A stretch of 64,000 nt of DNA from Amoebophrya sp. A120 (taxonomy: Eukaryota; Protista; Dinoflagellata). Under the pieces are notes generated by a model. The model ran no database searches and had not been told where the DNA came from. It saw nothing but the letters and a program-made list of their open reading frames with translations. This document shows, one piece after another, positions 541-53,800 of the stretch. The stretch spans positions 1 through 64,000 of the forward strand of contig CAJINV010000024.1 of the NCBI GenBank assembly GCA_905178155.1. The letters run 5' to 3'. The first letter of the stretch is position 1. Every line of letters begins with the position of its first letter. The position numbers and the translations under genes were made by a program.

Positions 541-3500
541 GAGGGAGATCAGGTCTCTCGCCAAGTGGGGCCGCTCGGTCTTGTCGGCGCGAACGAACTT
601 GATTTGCATCTCCAAGACGGAGAAAAACGTGTTGTAACTGCCAGAGATAGAGTATGGAGCTGTCAGGATTGAAATCAACAAAGTTGAAATAATTTGTGAT
701 GCATAAAATCTATTCCAGCTGGACCCACAGTTTCCAATCGGCGCATGACAAATTTTCCTGGCCGCTGAAGCAAGTCTGTCATGCTGTTTAGGGAAAGGTG
801 GCTGCTCCCTGTCATGCTAGTCAGCAGCCCAATTCTTGACCCTTACCAGCACTAGAATCTGCCTCCCTTGCGCCTTTAGCAATGGAGTCAGTCTACTTTG
901 TGTCGCATTTTATGCACGACAAATCCTTTCAACTTTGTCGATTTCAACTCTGACACATCCATATCGAGGAGGTCGAGAGGCTGTCGATTTTGTATTCGTT
1001 CAGAATTTTCGACCACATCGTCAAAAGCTTGCAATTATCCACGAGCAAAATCTCCAGCAGTTTTATCAAAGTGAAAACTATCCCCCCGCGGCCCCATAGC
1101 AAAGTGGAAATCTCTGATGCGGGATTTGTGTACACGACAAATCAGCTCTGTCTTGCAGTGAGGCACTGCAGGCAAAGCCTAAGCCTGCTGCGTAGGGGTG
1201 TTGTTATTTGGTGTAGGTGCTTAGCACAGCAGAGGCCTGCCATGTAAACGCAACAGCATTACAAATCGCCAGCGTAAGGTGGCGGATTCTTTGGCTTTGC
1301 CCTCTTGCACGAGAGACAGGATTTGTGGTCACAAATCAGCATGACAAATTTTTAGCAGCACAGAAGTATGGGGAGGCGGGGGGATTTTTCCTCGCAATAA
1401 GTTCCACGGCGACCGGGTAGTCGAGAAAAATTTTGTACTATCGCAAGAAAAAAGTGTTACAGTTACACACATAGTCTATGTAAGCCCAGCATGACAGACA
1501 ACCTCGGTCATGCCGGATAAGCATAGGAGCCTTCCTTCATACGTGTTTTTATCCCGTAGGATTTCTGCAGTGCAAGTTTTCTCTCTCATGCAGAGAAATC
1601 TGTGTTGCTGCATTGACAACAGATGTGTAACTCTGACACTTTTTTCGTGGGATATGTAAGTCGGGTTTCGGAAGTACAGGAGATACCGCAGAAACCAGCG
1701 GAAATCCGGATCGTCGACGTGTCTTTTTACCACGTGCTGCAGATACCGGGTATGCATTGCAAATACGTTTGGGTCCTCTGGAAGGATGCGAGGCTTGTCA
1801 TGCACATTTTGCATGACCCATAATGTCTGTGATGCATGCCCCAGCATCACAGATTTTTTTACGGGCGTCTTCATGCCTATTCCGCATGAGAAAGAACGCC
1901 ATTTCCACGTAGCAAAAACTGGGCTCCTCTTCTTGCAGCTCATGCAATACAGATTTCTTTTGGAATCCAAAGGTAGCATTACAAGTTGCACTCTTCCAGA
2001 CCCAGACCACATATTTGCATTTGATACCGGGGGTTCAGCAGCGATTGCAGGAACTGGCTCTCCCACGTGAACCGCTGCACATTGCTTATCGTGAGAAAAA
2101 ACTGTTTCACTGTGAACTTGTGATGCAGAAAATGGAACACAGAACTCTTTGTCTTGCTACACCTGGATCAAGGCATTGGATTTAGAAGCGTGTTTTCCCT
2201 TGGGAAGCGCGCATGACAAACAAGGTCCACGCGTGGGGACAGGGTCCCCACGCTGGGGCCTTGTGCGCACCCCTAGTGGCGCGAGTTGGAGAACATTGCT
2301 CGGCATCGCGGCGGACAGAGTCCGTCCCTCGCCTCACATCAGGCGCGCGCGCAGTGGCTTAGTTCGCAAAGCGGTAGTGGGGGAAGGGTGTTCGGCATCA
2401 GTGCGGACAGTGTCCGCCCCTCGGCCTCGCCTCACATCAGGCGCGCGCATAGTGGCTTAGTGCGCGAAGCGCTACAGCCGGGCGCAGGGTGTTTCTTCGG
2501 CAGCGGGGCGGACAATTCGAAACCGCCCCTGGAAAAGAAGTCCGGTCTCAAAGTTAAAGTTGCCTTTGTGCATCACAGGTCGGAGACTTCCCTCTCGTTG
2601 CGGTATGGAATTTCTACGCCGCCTCCTGCAGGAGCCAAGGCGATGGCGTAGAAATTCGAAGCCGCCGCTGAAAAAGAAACTCGACTGCAGCATTGCTTTT
2701 GTGCAATACAGATCGGAGCGAGACTTCGTCCTCAGGACGGTAGGGAATTTCTACGCCGCCTCATGCAGGAGCCAAGGTGATGGCGTAGAAATTCCATACC
2801 GCCCGGAGAAAGAAATGCCCGCTCTGTATTCCACAATCGCAGCCTTGCGAGGGAATATCTTTTCCAAGGGCGGCGCGGAATTTCTACACCCTCGCCTGGG
2901 CTCCCGCAGGACGCGGCGTAGAAAGTCTATACCGCCCGGGGAAAGAAATCTCTGCCCTGTGTTGCGCAAGAGCAGCTTTGGGATCGGATTCCTTTTCCAG
3001 GGCGGTATGGAATTTCTACGCCCCTGCCTTGGCTCCCGCAGGGCGCGGCGTAGAAAGTCCATACCGCCCGGGGAAAGAAATCCTCGATCTGTGTTGCGCG
3101 AAAGCAACTGTGGGGCCGGGTTCCTTTTTCAGGACGGTGTGGAATTTCTGCGCCTCTGCCTTGGCTGGCTCCCGCAGCCAGGCCAGGGCGCGGCGTAGAA
3201 AGTCCATACCGCCCGGGGAAAGAAATCTCCGATCTGTGCTGCGCAAAAGCAACTGTAGGGCCGGACTCCTTTTCCAGGACGGTATGGAATTTCTATGCCC
3301 CTGCCTTGGCATTGCATGCTCCCGCAGGACGCGGCGTGGAAAGTCCATACCCCCCGGGGAAAGAAATCTCCGATCTGTGTTGCGCAAAAGCAACTTTGGG
3401 GCCGGATTTCTTGTCCAGGGCGGTATGGAATTTCTACGCCCCCTCCCTGGCTCCCGCAGGACGCGGCGCGGAAAGTCCATACCGCCCGGGAAGAGAAATC

Positions 3501-6500
3501 TCCGATCTGTGTTGCGCGAAAGCAACTTCGGGGCCGGATTCCTTTCCCAGGACGGTATGGAATTTCTACGCTCCTGCCCCGGCTCCCGCAGGACGCGGCG
3601 CAGAAAGTCCATACCGCCCGGGGAAAGAAATCTCCGACCTGTGTTGCGCAAAAGCAACTTTGGGACGGGGTTTCTTTTCCAGGGCGGTATGGAATTTCTA
3701 CGCCCCTTCCTTGGCTCCCGCAGGACGCGGCGTAGAAAGTCCATACCGCCCGGGAAAAGAAATCTCCGATCTGTGTTGCGCGAAAGCAACTTCGGGGCCG
3801 GATTCCTTTCCCAGGACGGTATGGAATTTCTACGCTCCTGCCCCGGCTCCCGCAGGACGCGGCGTAGAAAGTCCATACCGCCCGGGGAAAGAAATCTCCG
3901 ATCTGTGTTGCGCAAAAGCAACTTTGGGACGGGATTTCTTTTCCAGGGCGGTATGGAATTTCTACGCCCCTTCCCTGGCTCCCGCAGGACGCGGCGTAGA
4001 AAGTCCATACCGCCCGGGAAAAGAAATCTCCGATCTGTGTTGCGCGAAAGCAACTTCGGGGCCGGATTCCTTTCCCAGGACGGTATGGAATTTCTACGCT
4101 CCTGCCCCGGCTCCCGCAGGACGCGGCGTAGAAAGTCCATACCGCCCGGGGAAAGAAATCTCCGATCTGTGTTGCGCAAAAGCAACTTTGGGACGGGATT
4201 TCTTTTCCAGGGCGGTATGGAATTTCTACGCCCCTTCCCTGGCTCCCGCAGGACGCGGCGTAGAAAGTCCATACCGCCCGGGAAAAGAAATCTCCGATCT
4301 GTGTTGCGCGAAAGCAACTTCGGGGCCGGATTCCTTTCCCAGGACGGTATGGAATTTCTACGCTCCTGCCCCGGCTCCCGCAGGACGCGGCGTAGAAAGT
4401 CCATACCGCCCGGGGAAAGAAATCTCCGATCTGTGTTGCGCAAAAGCAACTTTGGGACGGGATTTCTTTTCCAGGGCGGTATGGAATTTCTACGCCCCTT
4501 CCCTGGCTCCCGCAGGACGCGGCGTAGAAAGTCCATACCGCCCGGGAAAAGAAATCTCCGATCTGTGTTGCGCGAAAGCAACTTCGGGGCCGGATTCCTT
4601 TCCCAGGACGGTATGGAATTTCTACGCTCCTGCCCCGGCTCCCGCAGGACGCGGCGTAGAAAGTCCATACCGCCCGGGGAAAGAAATCTCCGATCTGTGT
4701 TGCGCAAAAGCAACTTTGGGACGGGATTTCTTTTCCAGGGCGGTATGGAATTTCTACGCCCCTTCCCTGGCTCCCGCAGGACGCGGCGTAGAAAGTCCAT
4801 ACCGCCCGGGAAAAGAAATCTCCGATCTGTGTTGCGCGAAAGCAACTTCGGGGCCGGATTCCTTTCCCAGGACGGTATGGAATTTCTACGCTCCTGCCCC
4901 GGCTCCCGCAGGACGCGGCGTAGAAAGTCCATACCGCCCGGGGAAAGAAATCTCCGATCTGTGTTGCGCAAAAGCAACTTTGGGACGGGATTTCTTTTCC
5001 AGGGCGGTATGGAATTTCTACGCCCCTTCCCTGGCTCCCGCAGGACGCGGCGTAGAAAGTCCATACCGCCCGGGAAAAGAAATCTCCGATCTGTGTTGCG
5101 CGAAAGCAACTTCGGGGCCGGATTCCTTTCCCAGGACGGTATGGAATTTCTACGCTCCTGCCCCGGCTCCCGCAGGACGCGGCGTAGAAAGTCCATACCG
5201 CCCGGGGAAAGAAATCTCCGATCTGTGTTGCGCAAAAGCAACTTTGGGACGGGATTTCTTTTCCAGGGCGGTATGGAATTTCTACGCCCCTTCCCTGGCT
5301 CCCGCAGGACGCGGCGTAGAAAGTCCATACCGCCCGGGAAAAGAAATCTCCGATCTGTGTTGCGCGAAAGCAACTTCGGGGCCGGATTCCTTTCCCAGGA
5401 CGGTATGGAATTTCTACGCTCCTGCCCCGGCTCCCGCAGGACGCGGCGTAGAAAGTCCATACCGCCCGGGGAAAGAAATCTCCGACCTGTGTTGCGCAAA
5501 AGCAACTTTGGGACGGGGTTTCTTTTCCAGGGCGGTATGGAATTTCTACGCCCCTTCCTTGGCTCCCGCAGGACGCGGCGTAGAAAGTCCATACCGCCCG
5601 GGAAAAGAAATCGCCGACCTGTGTTTCGCAAAAGAAACTTTGGGACGGGGTTTCTTTTCCAGGGCGGTATGGGATTTCTACGCCCCTTTCCTGGCTCCCG
5701 CAGGACGCGGCATAGAAAGTCCATACCGCCCGGGAAAAGAAATCTCCGCTCTGTGTTGCGCGGAAGCAACTTCGGGGCCGGATTCCTTTCCCAGGACGTT
5801 ATGGAATTTCTACGCCCCTGCCCCGGCTCCCGCAGGACGCGGCGTAGAAAGTCCATCACGCCCGGGGAAAGGAATCTCCGATCCATCTGTGTTGCGCAAA
5901 AGCAACTTTGGGACGGGATTTCTTTTCCAGGGCGGTATGGATTTTCTACGCCCCTTCCCTGGCTCCCGCAGGACGCGGCGCAGAAAGTCCATACCGCCCA
6001 GGAAAAGAAATCTCCGATCTGTGTTGCGCGAAAGCAACTTCGGGGGGGGCCGGATTCCTTTTCCAGGGCGGTATGGAATTTCTACGCTCCTGCCCCGGCT
6101 CCCGCAGGACGCGGCGTAGAAAGTCCATACCGCCCGGGGAAAGAAGTCTCCGACTTGTGTTGCGCAAAAGCAGCTTTGGGACGGGATTTCTTTTCCGCGG
6201 CGGTATGCAATTTCTACGCCCCTTCCCTGGCTCCCGCAGGACGCGGCGTAGAAAGTCCATACCGCCCGGGAAAAGAAATCTCCGGTCGGAGTTGCGCGAA
6301 AGCTATTTCGGGGCCGGATTCCTTTCCCAGACCGGTATGGAATTTCTACGCCCCCGCCCCGGCTCCCGCAGGACGCGGCGTAGAAAGTCCATACCGCCCG
6401 GGCAAAGAAATCTCCGATCTGTGTTGCGCAGAAGCAACTTTGGGACGGGATTTCTTTTGCAGGGCGGTATGGAATTTCTACGCCCCTTTTCTGGCTGGCT

Positions 6501-9500
6501 CCTGCAGGACGCGGCGTAGAAAATCCATACCGGGCGGGAAAAGAAATCTCCGATCTGTGTTGCGCGAAAGCAACTTCGGGGCCGGATTCCTTTCCAAGGT
6601 CGGTATGGAATTTCTACACCCCTGCCCCGGCTCCCGCAGGACGCGGCGTAGAAAGTCCATACCGCCCAGGAAAAGAAATCTCCGATCTGTGTTGCGCGAA
6701 AGCAACCTCGGGGCCGGATTCCTTTCCCAGGACAGTATGGAATTTCCACGCTCCTGCCCCGGCTCCCGCAGGACGCGGCGAGAAAGTCCTTGCCGCCCGG
6801 GAAAAGAAATCTCCGATCTGTGTTGCGCGAAAGCAACTTCGGGGCCGGATTCCTTTCCCGGGACGGTATGGAATTTCTACGCCCCTGCCCCGGCTCCCGC
6901 AGGACGCGGCGTAGAAAGTCCATGCCGCCCGGAAAAAGAAATCTGCGATCTGTGTTGCGCGAAAGCAAGTTCGGGGCCGGATTCCTTTCCCAGGACGGTA
7001 TGGAATTTCTACGCTCCTGCCCCGGCTCCCGCAGGACGCGGCGTAGAAAGTCCATACCGCCCGGGCAAAGAAATCTCCGATCTGTGTTGCGCAAAAGCAA
7101 CTTTGGGACGGGATTTCTTTTCCGGGGCGGTATGGAATTTCTACGCCCCTTCCCTGGCTCCCGCAGGACGCGGCGTAGAAAGTCCATACCGCCCGGGAAA
7201 AGAAATCTCCGATCGGTGTTGCGCGAAAGCAACTTCGGGGCCGGATTCCTTTCCCAGGACGGTATGGAATTTCTACGCTCCTGCCCCGGCTCCCGCAGGA
7301 CGCGGCGTAGAAAGTCCATACCGCCCGGGCAAAGAAATCTCCGATCTGTGTTGCGCAAAAGCAACTTTGGGACGGGATTTCTTTTCCGGGGCGGTATGGA
7401 ATTTCTCCGCCCCTTCCCCGGCTGGCTCCTGCAGGACGCGGCGTAGAAAGCCCATACCGCGCGGGAAAAGAAATCTCCGATCTGTGTTGTGCGAAAGCAG
7501 TTTCGGGGCCGGATTCCTTTCCCAGGTCGGTATGGAATTCCTACGCTCCTGCCCCGGCTCCCGCAGGACGCGGCGTAGAAAGTCCATACCGCCCAGGAAA
7601 AGAAATCTCCGATCTGCGTTGCGCGAAAGCAACTTCGGGGCCGGATTCCTTTCCCGGGACGGTATGGAATTTCTACGCTCCTGCCCCGGCTTCAGGCAGC
7701 CGGCCCGTGGCAAGCTATTTCGTTAATTCCGGGCTGATTTTTGGCTAATCCCCAAAGCGAAGGAGAGCAGACGCCAAAGGGGCCCGACTAGAAAGCGCGC
7801 CGGGGTTGCCGCCATATTTCCGGGGGCGCATAGTCATCGTGGGCGCCGCCCTCCGGGCACCCCCCTGCGCCCCCCGGAAGGGGAGGCGCGCGCCGGGAAA
7901 GGCGCCAAAGGGTACCCCGGCAGAGAAGAAAGGCCAAGGAGCCTGCGAAGCCTGCGCGTGGAGGGCCTCCACCAAATCACAACGGAGGCCGGAACACGAC
8001 CCCGGCGGACCTGTTGTCTGTGGGTTTCCAGAGCGCCACCCCTGCAATCTTCGGGGCAAATTGAAAAAGGCGCCGGCCGGGGGGAATCCATTCAAAGACG
8101 CAAAGGCCACGAGAGGCGGGAACTGCGGGCGGCCGGCCTGCCGAGAAAAAGCAGGGCATCTAAGGACAAACGGCGCCGACTGAGAGCCCAATGGTCTGGC
8201 GGAGTGACTGCCTCTCGGGGGAAGGTTAACTCCTTGGGTTTTTGGGGTAATTTGTGGGCTAATTTATAGTCTAATCTGTAGTTTAATTTTTGGTCTAATT
8301 TCAAAACCAACGAAACCTTCCCGATTTCGTTGCGGTCAGATTAACCCCCGAAATTACCCCCGGGATTACCCTCTTCATTAACCGCCCGGGACCGGGGTGG
8401 TGTTTGAAAGACCAAAACGCCCCGGCCTCGCGCCTGCCTGATTTCCAGAGCCGGGCCCGCTGCGCGCCGCCCCCCATAAATGCAAAGGCGCCGGGCCCCG
8501 GCGGATTTGAACCATGGCCAAAGGAGCAACCCCTATGAGCCAAACCACACCAAAAGACCCCCGCCCCTCGGAAAGATGCCGGACAAAGAAAAACCGAAGA
8601 CCCGGGCAAGGGCCCGACCCGAGACATTCCCCGAGGTAGGGGAAAAGAGCACCCGAGGGCAGGCCACCACCAAAAGCCAAGGCGCCGCGCGCGCGAAAGG
8701 GCCCAGCGATAAGCGGCCCCCACCCCCAAGAGGACGGGGGAGAACACACAACCAGGGGAGGCGGCCCGGAAGCTTACGACACCCGGGAAAACGGAAAGCG
8801 GGAGCGCCACACTATGCCGCGCCCTCCGCCCCGAATATGGCGCGCACCCAAAGGGTGCCACACCCAACCAACCGGCCCACGATTCCCAGAATTAGCGCCA
8901 TTTTAACGAAATTTCACTAGCGGAAATTGCCTCGGGCCGGCTGCCTGACCGGCTCCCGCAGGACGCGGCGTAGAAAGTCCATACCGCCCGGGAAAAGAAG
9001 TCTCCGACTTGTGTTGCGCAAAAGCAACTTTGGGACGGGATTTCTTTTCCAGGGCGGTATGGAATTTCTACGCTCCTGCCCCGGCTCCCGCAGGAAGCGG
9101 CGTAGAAAGTCCATACCGCTCGGGGAAAGAAATCTCCGATCTGTGTTGCGCAAAAGCAGCTTTGGGGCGGGATTTCTTTTCCACGGCGGTATGCAATTTC
9201 TACGCCCCTTCCCTGGCTCCCGCAGGACGCGGCGCAGAAAGTCCATATCGTCCGGGAAAAGAAATCTCCGATCTGTGTTGCGCGTAAGCAACTTCGGGGC
9301 CGGATTCCTTTCCCAGGACGGTATGGAATTTCTACGCTCCTGCCCCGGCTCCCGCAGGGCGCGGCGTAGAAAGTCCATGCCGCCCGGGGGAAGAGATCTC
9401 CGATCTGCGTTGCGCAAAAGCAACTTTGGGACGGGATTTCTTTTCCAGGGCGGTATGGAATTTCTACGCCCCTTCCCTGGCTCCCGCAGGACGCGGCGTA

Positions 9501-12500
9501 GAAAGTCCATACCGCGGGGGAAAAGAAATCTCCGATCTGTGTTGCGCGACAGCAACTTCGGGGCCGGATTCCTTTCGCTTTCCCAGGACGGTATGGAATT
9601 TCTACGCTCCTGCCCCGGCTCCCGCAGGACGCGGCGTAGAAATTCCATACCGCCCGGGGAAAGAAATCTCCGATCTGTGTTGCGCAAAAGCAACTTTGGG
9701 ACGGGATTTGTTTTCCAGGGCGGTAGGGAATTTCTACGCCCCTTCCCTGGCTCCCGCAGGGCGCGGCGTACGAAGTCCATACCGCCCGGGAAAAGAAATC
9801 TCCGATCTTCTTTGCGCGAGAGCAACTTCGGGGCCGGATTCCTTTCCCAGGACGGTATGGAATTTCTACGCTCCTGCCCCGGCTCCCGCAGGACGCGGCG
9901 TAGAAAGTCCATACTGCCCGGGGAAAGAAATCTCCAGTCTGTGTTGCGCAGCAGCAACTTTGGGACGGGATTGCTTTTCCAGGGCGGTATGGAATTTCAA
10001 CGCCCCTTCCCTGGCTCCCGCAGGACGCGGCGTAGAAAGTCCATACCGCCCGGGAAAAGACATCTCCGCTCTGTGTTGCGCGAAAGCAACCTCGGGGCCG
10101 GATTCCTTTCCCAGGACGGTATGGAATTTCTACGCTCCTGCCCCGGCTCCCGCAGGACGCGGCGTAGAAAGTCCATACCGCCCGGGGAAAGAAATCTCCG
10201 ATCTGTGTTGTGCAAAAGCAACCTCGGGGCCGGATTCCTTTCCCAGGACGGTATGGAATTTCTACGCCCCTGCCCCGGCTCCCGCAGGACGCGGCGTAGA
10301 AAGTCCATACCGCCCGGGGAAAGAAATCTCCGATCTGTGTTGCGCAAAAGCAACTTTGGGACGGGATTTCTTTTCCAGGGCGGTATGGAATTTCTACGCC
10401 CCTTCCCTGGCTCCCGCAGGACGCGGCGTAGAAAGTCCATACCGCCCGGGAAAAGAAATCTCCGATCTGTGTTGCGCGAGAGCAACTGCGGGGCCTGATT
10501 CCTTTCCCAGGACGGTATGGAATTTCTACGCTCCTGCCCCGGCTCCCGCAGGACGCGGCGTAGCAGATCCATACCGCCCGGGGAAAGAAATCTCCGATCT
10601 GTGTCGCGCAAAAGCAACTTTGGGACGGGATTTCTTTTCCAGGGCGGTAGGGAATTTCTACGCCCCTGCCTTGGCTCCCGGCCGCAGGACGCGGCATAGA
10701 AAGGCCATACCGCCCGGGGAAAGAAATCTCCGATCTGTGTTGCGCAAAAGCAACTTTGAGACCGGATTCCTTTTCCAGGACGGCATGGAATTTCTACGCC
10801 CCTGCCTTGGCTCCCGCAGGACGCGGCGTAGAAAGTCCATACCGCTCGGGGAGAGAAATCTCCGATCTGTGTTGCGCAAAAGCAACTTTGGGACCGGATT
10901 TCTTTTCCAGGGCGGTATGGAATTTCTACGCCCCTACCCTGGAGCCCGCAGCGCGCGGCGTAGAAAATCCATACCGCCCGGGGAAAGAGATCTCCGATCT
11001 GTGTTGCGCAAAAGCAACCTTGGGGCCAGATTTCTTTTCCAGGGCGGTATGGAATTTCTACGCCCCTGCCTTGTCTCCCGCAGGATGGACGCGGCGTAGG
11101 AATTCTTGGCCAGGAACGTCCGCCCCCCCCCGCCTCACACCAGGCGCGGCGCGCGTAGCTAGTGACCTAGTTTGCGGCGCGCTAGTGGGGGGAGGGTGTT
11201 TGCCTGCCGTGGCCACCTGCCGCAGACACCTGTCGCGGTCACCTGTCGCGGTCACCCTGTGTGTCCGGGGGTATGCGTTACCAGAACCCGGAAGGCTTTT
11301 CTATTTTTGAAAAATAGAGAGCTGCGCAAAAAGTTACTCTTTGCGAGATTCGAACTTCTTTGCTGCAGCGGAAGTCGCAGCTTTATGGTTTATTTCTGAA
11401 AAGAAAAAACGAATCTGACTAGACGCCCGGGCTCTGTAACTGTAATCAGACATCCCAGGCGACAGGGGGCGGCGACACGTGGAGGCGACAGGCGACGGCG
11501 ACAGGCAGAACGACAGGCAGAACGACAGGCAAAACGACAGGCGAAAGGACAGGCGGCGGCGACAGGCCAACAATGCCAGCTTTTGTTTGACGTGGTTCCG
11601 CACCAGCAGCAGCAACAAAAAAGCCGCGAGCCCTTTTTATTTCCGAGAAGAAAAAAGCAGCTCTTTTATTCACACGCAAAAAATAATTATCATGTTTTGG
11701 ATATTATGAGTAAATTAAATTATTTTTTGCGCATGAATATTGAAAAGAAGAGAGATGCTTTTTTCTTCTCGGAAATAAATGACTTTTTGCTTTTTTGTTG
11801 TTGCTGCTGCTGGTGCTGAACCGCATTAGAAGTTGGCGCTTTTGGCCTGTCGTCGCCGCCTGTCGTTTCGCCTCTCCTTTCGCCTGTCGTTTCGCCTCTC
11901 CTTTCGCCTGTCGTTTCGCCTGTCGTTTCGCCTCTCCTTTCGCCTGTCGTTTCGCCTCTCCTTTCGCCTGTCGTTTCGCCTCTCCTTTCGCCTGTCGTTT
12001 GGCCTCTCCTTTCGCCTGTCGTTTCGCCTGTCGCCGTCACCTCTCGGCGTCACCTGTCGCCGTCACCTGTCGTCTGGGGTATGTGATCACAGAACCCGGA
12101 AGTCAAGCAATATAAATATTAATTTTCAGTGTCATATGTAGCAAACTTGTGATGCAGATCTTGCAAAGTCATCACAGTGAAACACTTTCTTCGTACGATA
12201 TTGCTGTACGGAAGTTTAGCAGCCTGAAGCGCTTTTGCTGCGCGGGTGGCTTGATACTGTTCCTTTTTCTCTTTCTCCTGTTCGTCGTGCCGTTTTCTTT
12301 TGAAGGAAGGCGGCGAAGCACAAAAGCTGCTCTCCTCGAGGGTCGTGTCTTGATGGTATGCAAGAAAAAAACTGCGTAAGTGTAATGCAGAACATGCAAC
12401 AGAGTAACGCCTGTCATGCCAGACAGCCACGAAGTCCGCTACTCGTGTGCGTTCTCCCTTCCGAGCCACGCATGATAGGTTTTCTCGGTCATGTAGAGCA

Positions 12501-43490: not shown

Positions 43491-46400
43491 TTACTTCACC
43501 TCCTTCGAAAAGCGGAAATAGAGTTTCTTGGCCAGCAGCCGGTGCTTCTTTGACTTCGCATACCAGGCAGCGTCATGACCGTGGTGACACTATGCATTGC
43601 AAATATCCAGGGTGGCTGGATTTGTGATGCGAAATTTGAAGGACAGCTGGATCTGTGATGCATGAAGAGGATTGGCACGTTTTTTTGTCCCATGCTGGAA
43701 GACAGTTTGTCATGCTATTCACGAATGAAAATGAATGCACAAGAAGCCGAGGAAAAGAACTTCTCATGCTGTTATGCCGTACAAGCGGCCACCCTGTGTT
43801 GCAAGTATCAGCACCACAAGTTTCCAGACCGAGACATACTTGCATTTGATAGGCACTTCTGCTCCGGGTCCGCTCCGTAGTGCAGGATTAAGAAGTATCA
43901 AGTGCAAAAATGTCTGGGTCTGGAAGAGTGTAGACTTGTCATGCAGATTTTCCATGACCCATGAGGTCAGGAATGCGGGACTGAGCATGACAGACTCTGC
44001 GAGGTCTCTGCCATGCCTAAGTATTCTGCATGAGAAAGTCCGTTCCAACTTGGTCAAAAGTGGACAGCTTTTGGCATTCATGCAACACAGATTTTTGCAT
44101 GCTTCAGATTTGTCATGACAAGTTACCATCTTCCAGACCCAGATATTTTTGCAATTCATAAGAAATGGCACAGGTCTTCCTTCCCCGTTTTCGCGGCGTA
44201 GTGCAAAATGGTCTGTCCGTTGTTGGGCCACTTGTTGTCGAGTGCTTTCCAGCCCTATCAAAATGAAAAATCCCCCCTCCCCATATCAGAATGGGGATTT
44301 GTGTAGCCTAGCATGATTTGTGAACACAAATCATTTTGTCATGCTAGAAGGCAAAAGATAGATGCAGACCCTGTAGTTCTGGCTGGCGTGGGAAGGCTTT
44401 GCATCTTCAGCATGACAGGAGGCAACTGGAAATGGAAAACAGCATGAAAAATCTCCTACAATTCAGGCCACAACTACTTCCAACGGCCTTCTCGCAATAC
44501 AAGTCTATTTGTGTACGCAACTCCGGCATCACAGATGTCCTTTTCGATATGGGGCGGGGAGAATTTCCCTTACGATAAGCCCTGGTTGTTGAGCATCTTG
44601 AAGCACTTCTTGTACTCCGCCGGCACCGATTCCTCAGCTTATCCTGTGCAAAAGTATCGTACTCGGAGTATAATTGCATTTATGCATTACAAATCTCTTT
44701 CTCAAGGTAAATCCGCATTACAAATTGAATTTGTAAAATGCTGGGCTAATTTGTGATGCAATTGATACTACACTAGTACGATGCTTTTGCATTGCATACG
44801 GCTTCGTACGGGGACATGATGTCACTCGCTTTGATCACTTTCTCCTGTATGAGAGTGCACAACTCACCCTCCCTTTATCTGTATTTTATTTGCATGAACA
44901 GCAATACAAACACTTGCACGAGTGCAGCCTGTGCATGACAAATTCAGGCACCTAGTTTAGTACTGCTTGGTCGCTGTCCGGAATCTGTGATGCATGCTAG
45001 TGCCGCAGGGAAGCACTTGGATTCTGGATTTTGCATGAGAAATGAGAACGAGGGGGGAGTTGTGCAGTTTCATATCCTGGCCGGCCACGTTAGAAGGCAT
45101 ACCGGATTTATCAAATGTAAAAATGTCTGGGTCTGGAAGATTCTGAGACTTGTCATGCATGTTTTGCATGACCCAGGACGTCTGTAATGCACGCCCTAGC
45201 ATCACAGATTTTTAGACGGCTTCCTGATGCCTACTCCGCATGACAAACGCCCTCCCCGCGTAGCACAAACTAGACCCCTGCTCTTGCTGGTCATGCAATA
45301 CAGAGTTTTTTAGAGACCGAAGTTAGCATCACAAGTTCCAACCTTCCAGACCCCGACATTTTTGCGTTTGATAGGATTTCTCATCCAGCAAATCGTTGCT
45401 GTTCGCGCCGTCATCCAGCTTGCTCTGGGCCTGCGCCTTCTTAGCCGCTTCCAGCTTCTTGCGCAACTATCGTGAGATAAAATCCCCCCTCCCCATATTG
45501 GAAAGGACATTTGTGATGTCGGATTTGCGTACACAAATCGACTTGTTATGCTAGAAGGCCAAGCGACGCAATTGTGGCCGGAATTGCAAGCAGTTTGTCA
45601 TGCTGTTTGCCACTTCCAGTTGCCTCCTGTCACGCTGAAGATGCAAGGCCTTCCCACGCCGGCCAGCACTACAGTCCGCATCTTTTGCCCTCTAGCGTGA
45701 CAACGTGAATTGTGCTAGCAAATCATGCTACACAAATCTCCGTTTTAGTATGGGGAGGAGGGATTTTTCCTTTTGATAACTGCTCCGGATTCTTCTGCAG
45801 CTGGTACTTCCACTCCTTCTATGAGAGTGCACAACTCCCCCTCCCCCTCATTTGTCATGGAAAATACCAATTCCAAGCGCTGCTGCGTGGTACTGTTTGC
45901 ATGACAGATTCCGGAAGCCCAAACAGTACTGCACTGAGCGCATGAACTTGTCATGAACAGGCTCCACAGGTGGGGGTGTCTGTATTGCTGTTCATGCGAT
46001 ACAAATGAGGGGGAGGGGGGTTGTGCACTGTCATACCTTCGCGAAAACCTGTTCGTTCGCCGGATTCGAAAAGTCGATCTCCTCCGCCGGAAAACTGACC
46101 ATCAGCGCCGGGATATCCAGAGGAAAAACGTCTTCAAACCTGAGTCAAGATGGGAACTCCACATCGGTGCCGTAATTGCAACCCATTTTTTGCCCAAGAG
46201 CAAGAATTATGTTCCCTGATTCCAGGAAAAAAATCATTTTTCCCAGGATCTAAAACTGCGCTTTTGGCTTTGCAATTCGGTACCTGAATTGCAAGCCACT
46301 TTTTACCCGAGCGCGATAATTCGGGACCCTAATTCCGGGAAAAAAATCATTTTTCCCAGGATCTAAAACTGCGCTTTTGGCTTTGCAATTCGGTACCTTA

Positions 46401-49400
46401 ATTGCAAGCCACTTTTTGCCCGAGCGCGATAATTCGGGACCCTAATTCCGGGAAAAAAATCATTTTTCCCAGGATCTAAAACTGCGCTTTTGGCTTTGCA
46501 ATTCGGTACCTTAATTGCAAGCCACTTTTTGCCCGAGCGCGATAATTCGGGACCCTAATTCCGGGAAAAAAATCATTTTTCCCAGGATCTAAAACTGCGC
46601 TTTTGGCTTTGCAATTCGGTGCCTTAATTGCAACCCACTTTTTGCCCGACCGCACGAATCATGTTCTGTGCATGGCAAATTCTGTTGCAAGCCACTTTCT
46701 GCCCGACGTGCATGACAACTCTGGAATGGGGACGTTTTTGACTCCGGGTACGAGAACTCTTCGAAGAGCGAGTTTTTCTTCTTCGGGTTCGCCAAATCAA
46801 TGGCCTTCTTGCCGAAATCGTCGATCACGTGCACCTGCTGCTTGATAATCGTTTCGTCCAGGTTCAGCACCAGGTAGTCGAAGAGAGGCTATCAAGTGCA
46901 AATATGTCTGGGTCTGGAAGATTGCCAGGCTTGTCATGCATGTCTTGCATGACCCATGACGCCTGGAATGCATGGCCGAGCATCACAGATTTTTAAAGGG
47001 CTTTCTGATGCATATTCCGCATGAGCAATGCCGTCTCCGCGTAGCACAAACTGGGCTCCTTTTGTTGGTCATGCAATACAGATTTGTCTAGAATCCAAAG
47101 ATAGCATCACAAGTTGCAACAGTCCAGACCCAGACATCTTTGCATTTGATAGGGGCTTGTTATTCTTTTTCGCCGCGTAGTGGAAGAAAGTGCCACCGCC
47201 GGTCTTGTGGGCCAATATGCATTGCGAATATGTTTGGGTCTGGAAACTTGTGATGCAAGGACGGGAAAAATAGTGATTACACTTTAATGCGCTGCCAAGC
47301 ATGACAAGTTTTTCCGTGGTTCTGAGTAGCGTACTCCGCATGTCATGCGGAGTACGCTACTCAGAACCACGGAAAAACTTGTCATGCTTGGCAGAGAAAC
47401 TGCGTTTTTGCATGACAGGCGAGCGGAGCTCTTCGCGGCCACGCAATACAGAGTTCAGAGTGATGCCAGACTAGCACGACAAATCTCGCAATCAATCTCC
47501 CAGACCCAGACATATTTGTATTTGATAGCCAGCTGCTGCTGGCAATTCTCGTTGTCGAACCCGAGTTCCTTGCACATCCGAAACATCTTCCCGTAAAAGT
47601 CGCACAGCCCAAAGTCGTGTTATGCAATGCAAAAGCATGATCCTACTAGTAGAAATTGCATTACAAATTCCCACAGCATTACAAATTGAATTTGTAATGC
47701 TGATTTACCTTGGTTGATGTAATGCATAAATGCAATTACTACGAGTACGATACTTTTACACGGGATACGTGCTCCTCGTCGTAGATCTTCGTGCCGTCCG
47801 ACCGGCCCGATTTGTTGGACGCCATGGACTATGCAATGCAAAAGCATCGTACTCGTATAAAATAAATGCATTACAAATTTTCTCAGCAAGACGAGAGAAA
47901 ATTTGTAATGCGGATTTTCCTTGAGGAAAAGATTTGTAATGCATGATTGCAATACGAGTACGATACATTTGCACAGGATATGGACTCTTTGCTCATCATA
48001 GACTGCCGCAGCTGGTCCTTGTTCGGGACCAATTGGATCATGATCTGCCCGTTGCTGAATATGCATTGCAAACACGTCTGGGTCCTCTGGAAGGATGCAA
48101 CTTGTCATGCTAAATCCGAACCGTGCAAAAATCTGTGTTGCATGAGTGGCAAAAGCTGTCCACTTTCGACGAAGTTGGGAGGGAGCTTCTCATGCAGGAC
48201 ATTAGGCATGACAGAGACCTCACAGAGTCTGTCATGCTAGGTCCCGCATTCCGGACCTCGTTGGTCATGGAGAGCCTGCACTCTTGGAAATTCCCTACTA
48301 CCGCTCGGGGGAGCTGGAACTTTCGCGAGACCAAACGAGATGGCAAGCGAGGTCCGCGCGCCCCCCCTGGAGGTGAGATACGAGGGTGGCCCTGTGTTGT
48401 GATCTGCAATCTGCATTAGACCACACAGGAAATGAGGAAGTTGGAGAAGGATCAGAAATGATCTGGAGCGACACTATGGAACGCTCCAACAACCTCAGCC
48501 AACCACTGCCCTCGCATTCACAAGAGACCTGCCGAAACAGACTCAACTCCGGGAAGCCTTCCCGAAGCCGACCTCTAAGTTCGGCCTGGTCGGCCACGAG
48601 GCAATGTCCTCAGGGGCCGTTAGGAACCTCCCGAAACAATCGTCAACGAGCTTCAGCGCCAAGAAGCCGCTGACGAAAGAAACGCACAGACTGTTCCCAG
48701 TGGCAAGAACAGAAAGGCAGGGACATAGGTGAACCGACAGTGACACCAACTCGACCAAGGTAACCCAGAGTTCCGGACCCGGGGAAAACTGGGGACCACG
48801 CGGCAGAAGCACAGCACAAAGACGCCTGAAGTGTTCCCAACCGCCAGTCAAGCAGCAGCCAAAAGTCAACGGAGGCAGCAGCAGAAGCCACTCAGGTACT
48901 CCACCGAAGACAAGAGGAGCCGCAAGACCCAGAGCAAGCTCCGACGGCCACAACAGACGCTTCTACTGTCGCAACACCACTGGGGACGAAGACAGAGGGC
49001 AAGGCAAGAGCCTCGCGCAACGGGAATTTCCCACCAAGCCATGTCAACGACCTCACATGAGAAGGCGCACCAGAACGGCCACGAGAGGGGTAGACATAGG
49101 ACATCCAGCATCCAGACACGTCGCCAAGACCGAAGGCGGTGAGCAACACCCATCATCTCGTTTGCGGGATCCGTCGCCATGCGTTCATGTTGGTCGGCAC
49201 TGGCCTCCACTCGTATCTCGTCCCCGTGGTGAACCCAGACATGGCTACTACCTCGAACGAGGGAGCTGGAAATGCCGCGCGCGCTCGCATACGCATCTGG
49301 GGCGCGGAACTCAAGATACGTCCAGCAGCCCGCCGACTCCACTACCGTAAGCCATTTAGGAGTACCCGCGCCGCCTCGCGAAGCTCCTATGGTCCCGCGC

Positions 49401-50855
49401 TGGCCTGCGTTGCTGGGCCACTGTCCTGTGCGCAAATGCCCAGAATCCAAACACGCTCTATCAGGGGTGCCGCTAGAGTCACAGCAGGGACTTTACGCGC
49501 ACAGACTATCAGGTCTGCCCTGGATTCTGGGGGTGGGAGAGATGCGGCGACAGCGCAGGCGAATCTTGGTCGAGCGACAGCATCATCTTCCAGGGTCCAC
49601 AGGAAGAGCGGGCACCTGTGATTCAATTGAGGCAACGGCGGGGACGGACATGTTCCGCCCCCGTGCACACAACAACAGAGTAGCAGACCGGCCAAATGAT
49701 TGAAAGAGAGAAGGAGACAAAACGAAGCTACTTCACATGCAAGGACTTAAGAGGAGGAAACCAAAAAGCACAATAAAAATAGCTCTATACTACTTTGCTC
49801 CCCCCAAAAGATCGCCGTCGCATGGCCGTGGCTCCAGCGCACGCTCGCGTCCCGTGATGCGCCACACGGCATCTGCTGATGCGCGGACCCTGCGCGGAAG
49901 ATGTCTTCCCGAAAGCGTCCGACTCCACCCATGCTGGGGATTGTGCGGGGCCGCGTGTGGTGACCAGCCTTCTCATCGAAGACAGTAACGAAGCCCCCTT
50001 TTCCGCTCGTGTTGTGCTTTATACCGAGGTCCATGCTATGCTTGTCATGGCGCCTGCCAAATCCACCGGCAGTCATTGTCGGCGTGGCGGTCCTTTACCG
50101 TGCTTCTGGGCGTGGGCAAGACGGTAAGTCGATGGCTGTCGTCGGAGGAGAGGCCATGTACGATTTCAGTGTGCGCACGGACGCTCGGGGCGCCGATGCT
50201 CTAGCTAGTACTACTGTAAAGGGGCACAGAGGACCCGCCACGTACGGGTGTTTATCTACTTTCGTTTCGAAACTCCACTGCAGGGAGTCGGGGGAGGTAC
50301 CGACGTGGCGTCAGTGGTAGTTGTAAAACAATTTAGAAGATGAGCAACAGAATGGTCCTACTCTACGGCATAGCTCCCCCTGTTCTACATTGATGGATCT
50401 CAGGCAACAAGACAAAGTCTTGAGCCAAAATGGCTACGGGTTTACATTCTTGGAGAGCCTGCATGGAGAGCCTGCATGACAGGTTTACATTCTTCCAGAT
50501 GTATAGACGTATTTGCATTTGATACTGAAGGGGTTGTCGCTAAACATGGAGGTGTTCACATTGTCGTCCCACGAAATGGATCCTGTGCAAAAGTATCGCA
50601 CTCGTAGTAGTAATCGCAGTAATGCATTACAAATTTCTTTCTTAAGTTAAATCCGCATTACAAATTTTATTTCTCAAACTGAGGAAATTTGTCATGCGAT
50701 TTATACTAGTAAGTACGATGCTTTGCATTTGATAAAATGGAGCGGTTGTTGAGGAAGGCATTGTTCGTCCCATTCATCGGACTGTCGTCGTCGAAATTTC
50801 GAGTGAAGCCGCCCTGGGAATTTGTGAAAGTGCTTATCCTCCTGGTCCTTGCCAT
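43491..50855 (-). CDS. Ankyrin-repeat protein (~370-380 aa) split by 15 introners; start uncertain
   Basis: Reconstructed frame includes GGTFFHYAAKKNNKPLFDYLV...IDDFGKKAIDLA and NGQTILHYAAKTGKEDLCHFLILHYGADPEQKCHHGHDAAWYA, ending in TAA at 43491-43493. Candidate ATGs at 50855 and 50777. Confidence 0.87.
43591..43851. mobile_element. Introner family A
   Basis: Family A ends; DR GACAC/GGCAC. Confidence 0.9.
43896..44160. mobile_element. Introner family A
   Basis: Family A TIRs; DR AGAAG/AGAAA. Confidence 0.92.
44256..44577. mobile_element. Introner family B
   Basis: Family B TIRs; perfect DR AGCCC. Confidence 0.92.
44640..44798. mobile_element. Introner family C
   Basis: Family C TIRs; DR CAGCT/CGGCT. 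Confidence 0.9.
44848..45074. mobile_element. Introner family E
   Basis: TIR TATGAGAGTGCACAACTC; perfect DR TCCTG. Confidence 0.92.
45109..45373. mobile_element. Introner family A
   Basis: Family A TIRs; perfect DR GGATT. Confidence 0.92.
45468..45778. mobile_element. Introner family B
   Basis: Family B TIRs; no 5-bp DR, but removing element +2 or +5 nt keeps the frame. Confidence 0.85.
45820..46035. mobile_element. Introner family E
   Basis: Perfect DR CCTTC; can be drawn as GT-AG on the - strand. Confidence 0.92.
46114..46750. mobile_element. Introner family H containing a 113-bp tandem repeat (~4 copies)
   Basis: TATCCAGAGGAAAAACGTC vs reverse complement TACCCGGAGTCAAAAACGTC; DR CGGGA/CGAGA; TCCCAGGATC at 46241, 46354, 46467 and 46580. 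Confidence 0.88.
46890..47151. mobile_element. Introner family A
   Basis: Family A TIRs; DR GAGGC/GGGGC. Confidence 0.92.
47216..47527. mobile_element. Introner family A with an internal perfect palindrome
   Basis: DR GCCAA/GCCAG; 51-bp arms at 47292-47342 and 47344-47394. Confidence 0.9.
47621..47767. mobile_element. Introner family C
   Basis: Family C TIRs; DR CGTGT/CGTGC. Confidence 0.9.
47830..47980. mobile_element. Introner family C
   Basis: Family C TIRs; perfect DR TGGAC. Confidence 0.92.
48281..50461 (-). mobile_element. Spliced-leader-headed retroposed insertion with 15-bp TSD
   Basis: TSD CATGGAGAGCCTGCA at 48266-48280 and 50462-50476; DinoSL at the 5' end; no long ORF and no poly(A). 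Confidence 0.85.
50419..50439 (-). other. Genomic copy of the dinoflagellate spliced leader (DinoSL)
   Basis: - strand reads CCGTAGCCATTTTGGCTCAAG, an exact match to the last 21 nt of the 22-nt DinoSL DCCGTAGCCATTTTGGCTCAAG. Confidence 0.95.
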
Positions 50856-53800
50856 CCTCGCCCGGCGAGGGGGGAAGGCGAAACCTCGCAACGTCGGGTT
50901 GCATCACCCCTTTCTCGTACCACTCGTTGCAGGTATTCAAAAGTGGCTGAAGTACGTTAGCCGAAGCATCTCTTCTTCCCGTCTGGTCGTGGAGGAAGCC
51001 CACACGAGAGACCAACGCCGGCAGATACACGTATTTGATCAGCAGGTACTGCTCCGAGAATTTGAATACGTTTAACGCATCCGGCGGCAGGCCTGGGAGA
51101 CCGGACTTTACGCGCTCATCTTCCTGCCTGGCTGCCATGTCCGCATCTCGGATGGCGATTTGAAAAAGGGACTCGTACTTCTGCGCTGTTTTGGAAGATG
51201 CGGAGGAACTTCTCTGTGAGGCCGACGGCCCCTTGTGATCTCCGTTGAAATTGAAGCCTATGCATTGCAAAAATGTCTGGGGCTGGAACGAAGCAACTTG
51301 TCATGCTAAATCTGAATCATGTGAAAATCTGTGTTGCATGATTCCCAAAAGCCATCCACTTTTGACCTAATCGAGAGACAATTTCTTATGCAGGATAGAC
51401 ATGATAGAACTTCCACAGAATCTGTCATGCTATGTCCTACCTACCTGACCGCACGGGCCATGGAAAACCTGCATGACAAGTCTGGCATTCTTCCAGACCC
51501 AGACATTTTTGCATTTGATAAAACCGATTCCCGCACGATTTGGGTTCTCCGTTTCCTGCTCGAAGGCCGATTTGTACCGGTTCACGAGCATATGGATTGT
51601 AAAAGTGTCTGGGTCTGGAAGGTTGCAACTTGTCATGCTAATTCTGGATCATGCAAAAATCTGTGTTGCATGAGTGCCAACAGCTGTCCACTTTCGACCA
51701 AGTTGGCAGGGAGTTTCTCATGCAGGATAGGCATGGTAGGGATCTCACAGAATCTGTCATGCTGGGTCTCGCATTCCAGACCTCATGGCTCATGGAAAAT
51801 ATGCATGACAATGCTAGAAATCTTCCAGACCCAGACATTTTTGCATTCGATAGAGCACGATTAGCTGCGAAGCCCAGTTGTGAAAATCCTGGGCCAGGAG
51901 GTGGTGGACCTCGCGCCAGTCTTGTTGGCCCCAAAAATTGACGATTGTAGATTCGCGAGTTCTACAACTACTTCCGTGGTTGGCGTGGGCGGCGAGAGCA
52001 GCAAACACTTTTTGTGCAACGGGAAGTGCGCAGATGGTTCCCGACCAGTCGTGCAAAAGCATTGCTAGCACGTCGACCAGCGATTGCTGGGCCAGCCTGC
52101 CGACCGTCTCGTACATAACGCGCGTGATGGTGTCTATCTTCGCGCAGCTCTCCTCGGTGCCGGAATCATCGCGCCTGAAGAGGAGAGTTGCAAGCTCGTC
52201 CATTTTCGCTAGGTAAATATCCAGAATTTCTCGAAGCTCGTCGTCATGCGCAACGACCGGCTGTCGCTCAATCTCGGTCTCGGCAACACCACGATACGAG
52301 CGGGAGAGTATCTTCGCGGAGGCGCGATCAGGACTGCGGCCTTGCAATTTTTGAATGCAGCCTCCAACCATGAGAGGGGAGCCAGACCGCTCCACGCACG
52401 CCAGATTCGTAAGCATTGCAATGCTAGATCGCCGAACCAAGTGCAAGCACGCGGGCTTCAGCTTGAGCTGAGCGCTTTCTTTCTTCTCGCCGTAGTAAGG
52501 CAACAAATTTACCACGTAGCGCTTGCAGGCTTCCCGCTCCCCCGCTGACAGAGTTGTGTCCGATACTTCTCCAACAACCTCTGCATACCGGCCATTCAAC
52601 TCTGGACGCGACTGTAGATCCTGTACCAAAATTAGGTCACCTTTGAAAAAAAGCGACGACGCTAACATTTTTGCGTGGTCTTGTTCAGCGGTCTTCTTTT
52701 TGATTCGCAGAAAACGGTGCGAGCCACGTTCACTTATCGGACACTGCTCGCACTTCGTTAGCATGTACTGGTAGACCGGGGTGATCGAGACCAGAAACCA
52801 GGCACTCACCGTGAACAGTTCTATTTGTTGAAGCAGCGCGACGCCGGTTTCCTTGTCGAGCGCACGCAGGTCCAAGACCTTTGTGTCGGTGTCGTCCGGA
52901 ACATCAGCCGTGCTCCGGTTTCGCTGAATTTCTGCCAGGAGTTTGTACGGGTCGTCTTTCTGCTCAGCCGCAAATTTCTTCACGACTCGATCCACTTTAT
53001 CATAGAGTTTGTCCAAGCGCTCCTCGTCCTTAATGTCATCGAAGTCATCGGGGTCATCACCCCATTCTTGTTTCATCTGCCTGCGCACCATCTTTTCTGT
53101 GAGAATTTCTCCGTACTGCAATTCCTGTTGGCGTTCTGGGACCCCCCTCGCGAACTCGACCAACAAACGGCGGACTGCTCCATACAGGTTCCGTAACGCA
53201 AAGCCCCGAAGTTGCCGCGGATCGTCCTCTTCCTCCAGCGGATCCTGAAGAACGGTAATGCAGGACATCATCATGTTGTCAACATGCACGCTCATCTCCC
53301 CAACTGCGTTCAGTGGAATCACGCCAGACATTGTTCCGCGAAGTATGTAATCGGAAATACTCCTGTTGGCCGGGTCTGCTGTCCCTGTAAAAAGTACGTA
53401 AGAGGCGCCGAAAGCCCCTTGCGCTGCAACCTGTCGGTCCTGCAACTCCCTTTGCAATCTGAGTTTCGCGTCCTCGGATGCGTTCGCGGCCTGCTGTCGT
53501 AAAAAGAAGCTCGCCACGCCATCCCTACTTGCGATTTTTGCTTTGGCCGAAACAATCTTCTCGTTACACCGCACTGTCCGTCCGTCTGCTGTTGACGTGC
53601 CAAGAACCTTCCACGAGTCGGGTGAGATTTCTCTCAGTGGTACTCCGAAAGCCGCTACGAGAACTTCCAGTGTCTTCTTCGTTTCCTCAAATTTGCAGTA
53701 GGTAAAAAACTCCTCTCGGAGCCGAGAGATGATCAAAACCGCACACAGCGCGAATCCGGCGGCGAAATTCTTCACGACATAATCGCGCGGCAAAAACTTC

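Follow-up and report, generated by a model that had tools for sequence, protein, structure and literature searches.

The window analysed here is a 64,000-nucleotide stretch of the dinoflagellate Amoebophrya sp. A120 (assembly GCA_905178155.1, contig CAJINV010000024.1, positions 1 to 64,000 of the forward strand). On its minus strand it carries a non-coding insert headed by the dinoflagellate spliced leader (DinoSL; SL below), which lies inside an introner, a spreading intron of this lineage, and is flanked by a target-site duplication (TSD). Relatives of the insert were sought in the contigs of five of the 15 listed public sequencing runs, which are designated by X numbers. The features of the locus are as follows.

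48055..48280, no strand: host introner on the 3' side of the insert, with a TAT-N7-AAA terminal inverted-repeat end at 48060; a joint from 48054 to 50525 was seen in run X4.
48264..48269, plus: left half of the dyad, GTCATG, with a putative second-strand nick at 48267/48268 placed from the TSD edge.
48268..48280, plus: TSD copy at the 3' end of the element, 13 bp (15 bp if 48266-48267 are included); its 3' end is the candidate primer of the cDNA.
48281..50439, minus: element body, 2,159 bp, non-coding, with no A-tail, long terminal repeat (LTR) or terminal inverted repeat (TIR).
48281..49090, minus: 3' region common to relatives, a likely 3' untranslated region (UTR) recognised by reverse transcriptase (RT).
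48480..48600, minus: predicted stable hairpin (z -3.5), overlapping 48491-48523, a block kept by diverged relatives.
49091..49437, minus: putative internal-deletion zone of 347 bp, where the contigs of two relatives have >730 and >4,400 nt (X4 records 16 and 18).
49438..49533, minus: 96-nt block with one difference from the long relative; predicted multi-stem fold with a long closing stem (z -3.3) and CUGAUA twice.
50168..50418, minus: 5' region common to the 5,662-nt relative and other family members.
50419..50439, minus: exact DinoSL, 21 nt; the next bases are AC, where an SL RNA gene would have its GT donor.
50439..50451, plus: templated piece 1, copying target 50482-50494; it has one base in common with the SL and one with piece 2.
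50451..50463, plus: templated piece 2, an extra tandem copy of the 13-bp TSD.
50464..50476, plus: TSD copy at the 5' end of the element.
50475..50480, plus: right half of the dyad, CATGAC, with a putative first-strand nick at 50476/50477.
50477..50524, no strand: remainder of the host introner, 48 bp to a TATCAAA-type end.

Anatomy of the insert and its host introner

The DinoSL heading the insert (50439-50419, minus strand) matched the leader at 21 of 21 nucleotides and was the sole SL-like match in the window at up to five edits. The variable first base of the 22-nt leader coincides with a C of the adjoining templated piece. Read along the minus strand, the order is target, TSD (50476-50464), a tandem TSD copy (50463-50451), a copy of 50494-50482, DinoSL, body, GGGAATTTCCAAGAG and the second TSD (48280-48268). 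Within the window, GGTTTACATTCTT was found at 50439 and 50482 and nowhere else, and TGGAGAGCCTGCA at 48268, 50451 and 50464. The 5' junction thereby holds 24 nt of target-templated sequence, whose pieces are joined via single shared bases. At the opposite end the terminus ...GGGAATTTCCAAGAG runs directly into the TSD. No A-tail could be observed there (the final 150 nt held no run of A longer than 3), no LTR or TIR was present (longest terminal inverted match, 5 nt), and the window contained no second copy of the insert. From the sequence alone the TSD measures 13-15 bp, an ambiguity that arises because the tandem extra copy ends in CA; it was taken as 13 bp because that length matches the two symmetric positions of the dyad described below.

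The original prediction, which was made from this DNA, had described a 2.18-kb insert with a 15-bp TSD, an unmutated DinoSL at its minus-strand start, short target copies between the SL and the TSD, a 3' end without an A-tail and no sizeable open reading frame (ORF). The last four descriptions were confirmed. The insert and the duplication are equally real, but the figure of 2.18 kb counts the templated junction together with the body, and 15 bp is the upper end of a range in which 13 bp fits the dyad. The longest stop-free frame of the insert was 208 codons, a length matched by 15 of 200 shuffles, and the longest ORF starting with ATG was 144 codons. Six frames of the insert gave no match in Pfam, a phmmer search with the 208-amino-acid frame returned 0 matches among 1.84 billion representatives, and Rfam returned no match up to an E value of 1 and identified no ribozyme. 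A stretch of frame at 48546-48962 that appeared RT-like by eye was dropped, having no Pfam match. Two of the six folded segments (49438-49533 and 48480-48600) had z scores below -3, and both overlap blocks kept in relatives.

Removal of the insert and one TSD restored a 274-bp introner with up to 82% identity over 272 nt to other introners of the window. It resembles the introner type of Amoebophrya A120 in its TAT-N7-AAA inverted-repeat ends and similar size (PMC7789003, PMC12130899). The insert itself was considered as an introner and rejected: its longest terminal inverted match is the 5 nt given above and it lies within an introner, as a passenger. A perfect 51-bp inverted repeat with a 1-nt spacer was also noted within an introner at 47292-47394.

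The empty site reads GTCA^TGGAGAGCCTGCA^TGAC, which forms a perfect GTCATG-N9-CATGAC dyad. The 13-bp TSD spans exactly its two symmetric CA^TG points, so that each edge reads CA^TGAC on either strand. Many other introners of the window bear the same dyad (e.g., at 1797, 14192, 36073, 43938, 45152, 46933, and 54156). Perfect dyads numbered 8 in about 62 kb, or 1.3e-4 per strand-position (2.6e-4 with one mismatch), the rate at which a random insertion would hit one in register, and among GTCATG..CATGAC pairs with spacers of 0-40 the spacer was 9 in 8 of 12, the insert site included. Elsewhere in the window, 15 dyad sites with at most one mismatch were found against 0.14 expected. Six of the listed sites had an identifiable end motif; in five of them the dyad lay 42-47 nt from it, and in the sixth 31 nt. 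Introners conserve the dyad near their ends. Its shorter part GCATGAC occurred at 85 sites in the window against 8.9 expected, and it was about 16 times denser inside introners than outside; its frequency was 0.0007 per strand-position in the window and 0.005 in introner-like DNA (49 of the 85 sites in 4,976 bp). The introner mobiliser or a splicing factor may bind at the dyad or, more generally, at GCATGAC. The match between the dyad and the insert site was spotted post hoc, and a second case was therefore required.

Relatives of the insert and an apparent second dyad site

Run X1, which contains unspliced introners and records of 95 kb, covered the insert in 30/30 bins with pieces at ≥99%. 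It gave 66 records on the insert: 26 at ≥99%, 20 at 95-99%, 11 at 90-95% and 9 at <90%. Overlapping variant contigs were present among them, together with a diverged short form crossing the deletion zone (record 3). Contig depths (46 for the unique exon contig, 20-35 for variant contigs, 70-230 for insert pieces) were not taken as copy numbers. In run X3, cover was confined to the 3' half of the insert, where depth dropped from about 200 to 0, and the exon 50750-51151 had none; this pattern was not used as evidence. Another X1 repeat family, of contig depth 286, matched the insert only at 48424-48527, 48613-48645 and 49003-49036, and these short common blocks suggest related subfamilies with conserved 3' UTR motifs.

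The X1 coverage bears on whether the insert is an assembly artefact, by cDNA contamination or chimerism, or part of an SL RNA gene, both of which the original prediction had raised as possible refutations. Although the junctions of this locus are unbridged among the contigs listed, the complete X1 coverage and the perfect introner restored through the TSD make an artefact unlikely. A metagenome scan for the SL placed right after GTCATGC gave 16 loci, none of the insert family: 12 were SL RNA genes with GTA after the SL (9 of them near-identical) and 4 were other SL-bearing sequences. Nothing beyond the SL region was common to these loci and the insert, and a scan of viral contigs gave 3 loci with no match past the SL region. 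An SL RNA gene or SL array was accordingly rejected, the SL of the insert being followed by AC and single in the window. Taken as one explanation, artefact or SL RNA gene is scarcely credible.

An apparent second insertion could be traced in run X4, which was classed as RNA by automatic guess and in which one contig skips four introners in this region. X4 record 18 (5,662 nt) matches the insert at 50168-50439 with the SL, at 50026-50070 and at 49438-49533, after which 4.4 kb is unmatched; two joints of this long form recur in X1. Its SL directly adjoins AGTCTGGCA^TGAC..., and the best look-alikes of that flank in the window are the introner dyads at 47456 and 36081. X4 record 16 (1,570 nt) is 97% identical over 48304-49090, has the homologous tail-less 3' end, and its flank ends in AGTCTGGCA (9 nt). 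Because both records carry the same 9-mer, they were read as two ends of one copy, which would be an insertion of at least 7 kb at GCA^TGAC, flanked by a TSD of about 9 bp and oriented like the window copy. A weak third case was X3 record 8, of low depth, whose match starts at 48277 (TGCA), outside the 3' end, after 26 unrelated letters. The putative first-strand point falls at GCA^TGAC in two junctions and a weak third, a small sample.

The original prediction had the insert landing in an introner and named no target site. The insert does sit inside an introner, but the conserved dyad at its site and the longer relative apparently at a like site suggest targeting rather than luck. If the insert were instead an untargeted non-autonomous derivative of a long interspersed nuclear element (LINE), seen in introners only because exon insertions were purged, the abundance of introners and the roughly 16-fold density of the motif in them would help to produce such a site, and just two or three junctions have been seen. 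Nevertheless, even with survival restricted to introners a second GCATGAC insertion is improbable because the motif has a frequency of 0.005 per strand-position in introner-like DNA, and both TSD edges follow the symmetry of the dyad. We therefore regard an untargeted LINE derivative as improbable.

Somewhat less improbable, though still unlikely, is that the dyad is cut by another nuclease, either the introner mobiliser or a structure-specific enzyme of the host, and that any available RT writes element RNA into the breaks; the preference would then be real and not encoded by the element. Cuts placed symmetrically within a dyad would fit a dimeric, transposase-like enzyme or one that cuts cruciforms, and the dyad is conserved near introner ends. 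Polymerase-theta end joining typically leaves templated patches at junctions, which also counts in favour of host breaks, and the introner mobiliser is described as unknown (PMC7789003). Against this, the insertions observed at the dyad come from one family, are oriented alike with respect to GCA^TGAC and show clean 3' junctions, as expected of element-directed priming.

The relatives also bear on a further explanation, in which the insert, without belonging to any mobile family, would be the processed pseudogene of a host transcript or of an SL-capped non-coding RNA. Retrocopies bearing an SL abound in dinoflagellates (PMC5585692), and those relatives that continue upstream with no intact SL might represent the source loci. 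The many diverged and near-identical copies, the separately diverged short form, the second SL-headed copy with its own TSD-like flank and the lack of an A-tail all speak against it, and we consider it very improbable. A processed mRNA pseudogene had likewise been tried and rejected (no ORF beyond chance, no tail, multi-member family).

We consider it probable that the insert is a non-autonomous, internally deleted, R2-SIDE-like derivative of a non-LTR retroelement with site specificity, one whose nicks fall in the introner dyad and whose 5' end is supplied by SL trans-splicing. Several properties agree with a non-autonomous non-LTR retroelement of the SIDE/NARTc kind: the TSD, the lack of LTR and TIR, the additions and microhomology at the 5' junction, the occurrence of several copies at independent sites (distinct variant contigs and the second junction pair), and ends in common with a longer element whose middle is missing in the insert (X4 records 18 and 16, presumed to be one copy). 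The original prediction of a non-coding, non-autonomous, SL-headed retroelement inserted in the manner of target-primed reverse transcription (TPRT) is upheld by the TSD, the templated 5' junction and the multi-member family, and of the two outcomes it set out, a mobile family or a processed pseudogene, the near-identical and diverged members in public contigs favour the first.

Several observations weigh against this interpretation. The second site shows 30 flank letters per end, the left half of its dyad is taken from introners of similar sequence, and the TSD there appears to be 9 rather than 13. The depths of the two X4 records are unequal (13.7 for record 16 and 36.6 for record 18), and most listed variants of record 16 are without depth in X1. 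An intact SL is not carried by all family members: matching stops just before the SL in X1 record 7 and X8 record 26 (both at 50416) and in X8 record 25 (50411), although the last was not counted as an SL-less source locus because its loose end looks, by eye, like a decayed SL. Among the contigs listed, none crosses the junctions of this locus. No RT or endonuclease was seen in the frames of the insert, which were searched, the interior of the long contig being unread. The case for targeting comprises two sites and the weak third.

A mechanism can be proposed for the insertion. Read-through from the host gene would produce the RNA of a copy, whose 5' end would be reset when a new SL is trans-spliced at the last AG of the old one. 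The element RNA is inferred to be trans-spliced, and such renewal of the 5' end is favoured because two insertions begin at the first bases of the SL with no donor flank or relict SL, and because SL AGs are reported as potential trans-splice acceptors (PMC5585692). A protein of the long relative (at least 7 kb) may bind the common 3' region and mobilise the insert in trans. One strand would then be nicked at CA^TGAC, and the junctions suggest priming on ...GCA-3'OH with no A-tail, perhaps aided by a read-through UGC in the RNA. The other strand would be nicked at the symmetric CA^TGAC, 13 nt away, leaving a 13-nt overhang. At the cap end, 12 nt of nearby target and the extra TSD are present, and the cDNA may have gained them by switching template twice on one-base microhomologies; either the RT or host end joining could have carried out this switching.

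More tentatively, and with somewhat less than even confidence, the insert may represent an active retrotransposon family of Amoebophrya-type genomes that is hyperparasitic on introners, with an endonuclease that reads the dyad and nicks both strands at CA^TGAC. Such a family would need no promoter, ribozyme or A-tail, relying on read-through and repeated trans-splicing, and the same TPRT machinery could write the SL-bearing retrogenes of the lineage.

The host gene and other observations

The original prediction had also called the insertion harmless, which was not borne out: the sole RNA-type contig across the intron bears the variants of a second gene copy. This X4 contig, in which 48054 is joined to 50525, has variants at 47581 and 50548; the same variants occur in X1 contigs without the introners 47621-47772 and 50582-50742. 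The X4 contig departs from the window sequence beyond 50790, and it likely derives from the second gene copy. In X1, the second copy of the coding stretch 47528-50790 lacks the same two introners, which suggests a recent introner gain in one duplicate. The window copy has a frame change near 50790-50840, and the host may therefore be a duplicated fragment under relaxed selection. No protein homologues were found for two host-gene ORFs. The raw RNA run X13 had reads on introner-like pieces only, and X4 was without cover at 50884-51151, which was not used as evidence of silence.

Elsewhere in the window, a tandem repeat of about 100-bp units was observed at 46190-46700, in an intron downstream of the host exons. 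A long tandem repeat at 2789-11300, with an open frame of 1,645 codons on the plus strand and open frames on the minus strand as well, is probably satellite DNA rather than a gene. Outside the window, a giant-virus contig of IMG/VR (L018:1894-10012; a metagenome-assembled genome, 22% GC) carries near-perfect DinoSL copies at 1894, 8656 (one mismatch) and 9992; two of the three precede ORFs without a Pfam match by about 75-100 nt. The contig is gene-dense, encoding RING, RNase H, GIY-YIG and DNA methylase proteins. The copies may stem from a dinoflagellate virus having taken up mRNAs of its host, from mimicry of the SL, or from a eukaryote contig that was binned wrongly. In another locus (L010:235-3630) the SL stands directly upstream of an intronless 1,157-codon frame, presumably related to the FACT subunit Spt16; this locus is an ordinary SL-bearing cDNA or retrogene.

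Relation to known elements and significance

The R2 SIDEs, derivatives that consist of a 5' module and the 3' UTR, provide a precedent for the insert (PMC3414825). The insert resembles the Drosophila SIDEs of R2 and R2/R1 in keeping the 5' processing end of a longer element together with its 3' end while lacking the middle, and the likeness would extend to a fixed site in a multicopy target and movement in trans by TPRT (PMC3414825). The insert differs from them in that its 5' end is a spliced leader where theirs is a ribozyme of the hepatitis delta virus type, and in that its apparent target is the introner dyad and not 28S ribosomal DNA (rDNA). The 5' junctions of R1 and R2 show target duplications and microhomologies, and the 13-bp TSD is similar in size to the 14 bp of ancestral R1 (PMC2718515). 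A fixed site in repeated DNA, which the insert may have, is a property of CRE/SLACS/CZAR, NeSL, R4, R1 and Tx1 (PMC4640811, PMC3636483), and transposons are among the known targets of non-LTR elements (PMC4640811). CRE and NeSL insert into SL genes; in the insert, by contrast, the SL forms the 5' end of the element itself and the insertion site lies outside SL genes. Unlike that of the target-specific non-LTR clades, its putative target is a symmetrically cut dyad within a spliced-out element. The known sites of target-specific retrotransposons are rDNA, SL and small nuclear RNA genes, tRNA genes, microsatellites, telomeres and other transposons; Tx1L inserts in the Xenopus DNA transposon Tx1D.

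In dinoflagellate SL-bearing retrogenes, too, the retrocopy starts with a DNA-fixed SL, whose AG is reusable as an acceptor (PMC5585692, PMC6050394). Those are copies of host mRNA, whereas the insert is one of a mobile, non-coding family and has a TSD and what appears to be a target site. SL-capped transcripts of transposable elements are known in Hydra (PMC12220107). A nested SL-headed retroelement at a fixed introner site is not described in the available portions of PMC7789003 and PMC12130899; the supplement of the latter labels four A120 families as non-LTR, in the part available with no description of a nested SL-headed element. No introner-targeting or SL-headed retroelement of this lineage was found in the accessible portions of the open full-text literature and supplements searched, a scope that leaves Repbase and subscription papers outside. 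The insertion point at a dyad in introners, and the longer relative apparently at a like site, appear to be new here.

The enzyme of dinoflagellate retroposition has been called unknown, with LTR elements of the Ty1/copia type favoured (PMC6050394). In contrast to this LTR preference for SL-bearing retrogenes (PMC5585692, PMC6050394), the junctions of the insert look like TPRT, and they provide a concrete non-LTR candidate for that enzyme. Two nicks at one dyad-symmetric motif would offer a simple model of second-strand cleavage, and nested copies may account for some of the non-LTR labels on introner families. If the proposed reading is true, introns that spread, are spliced out and occur in thousands of genes would constitute a new safe-site niche, and the fate of the element would be bound to the introner invasion.

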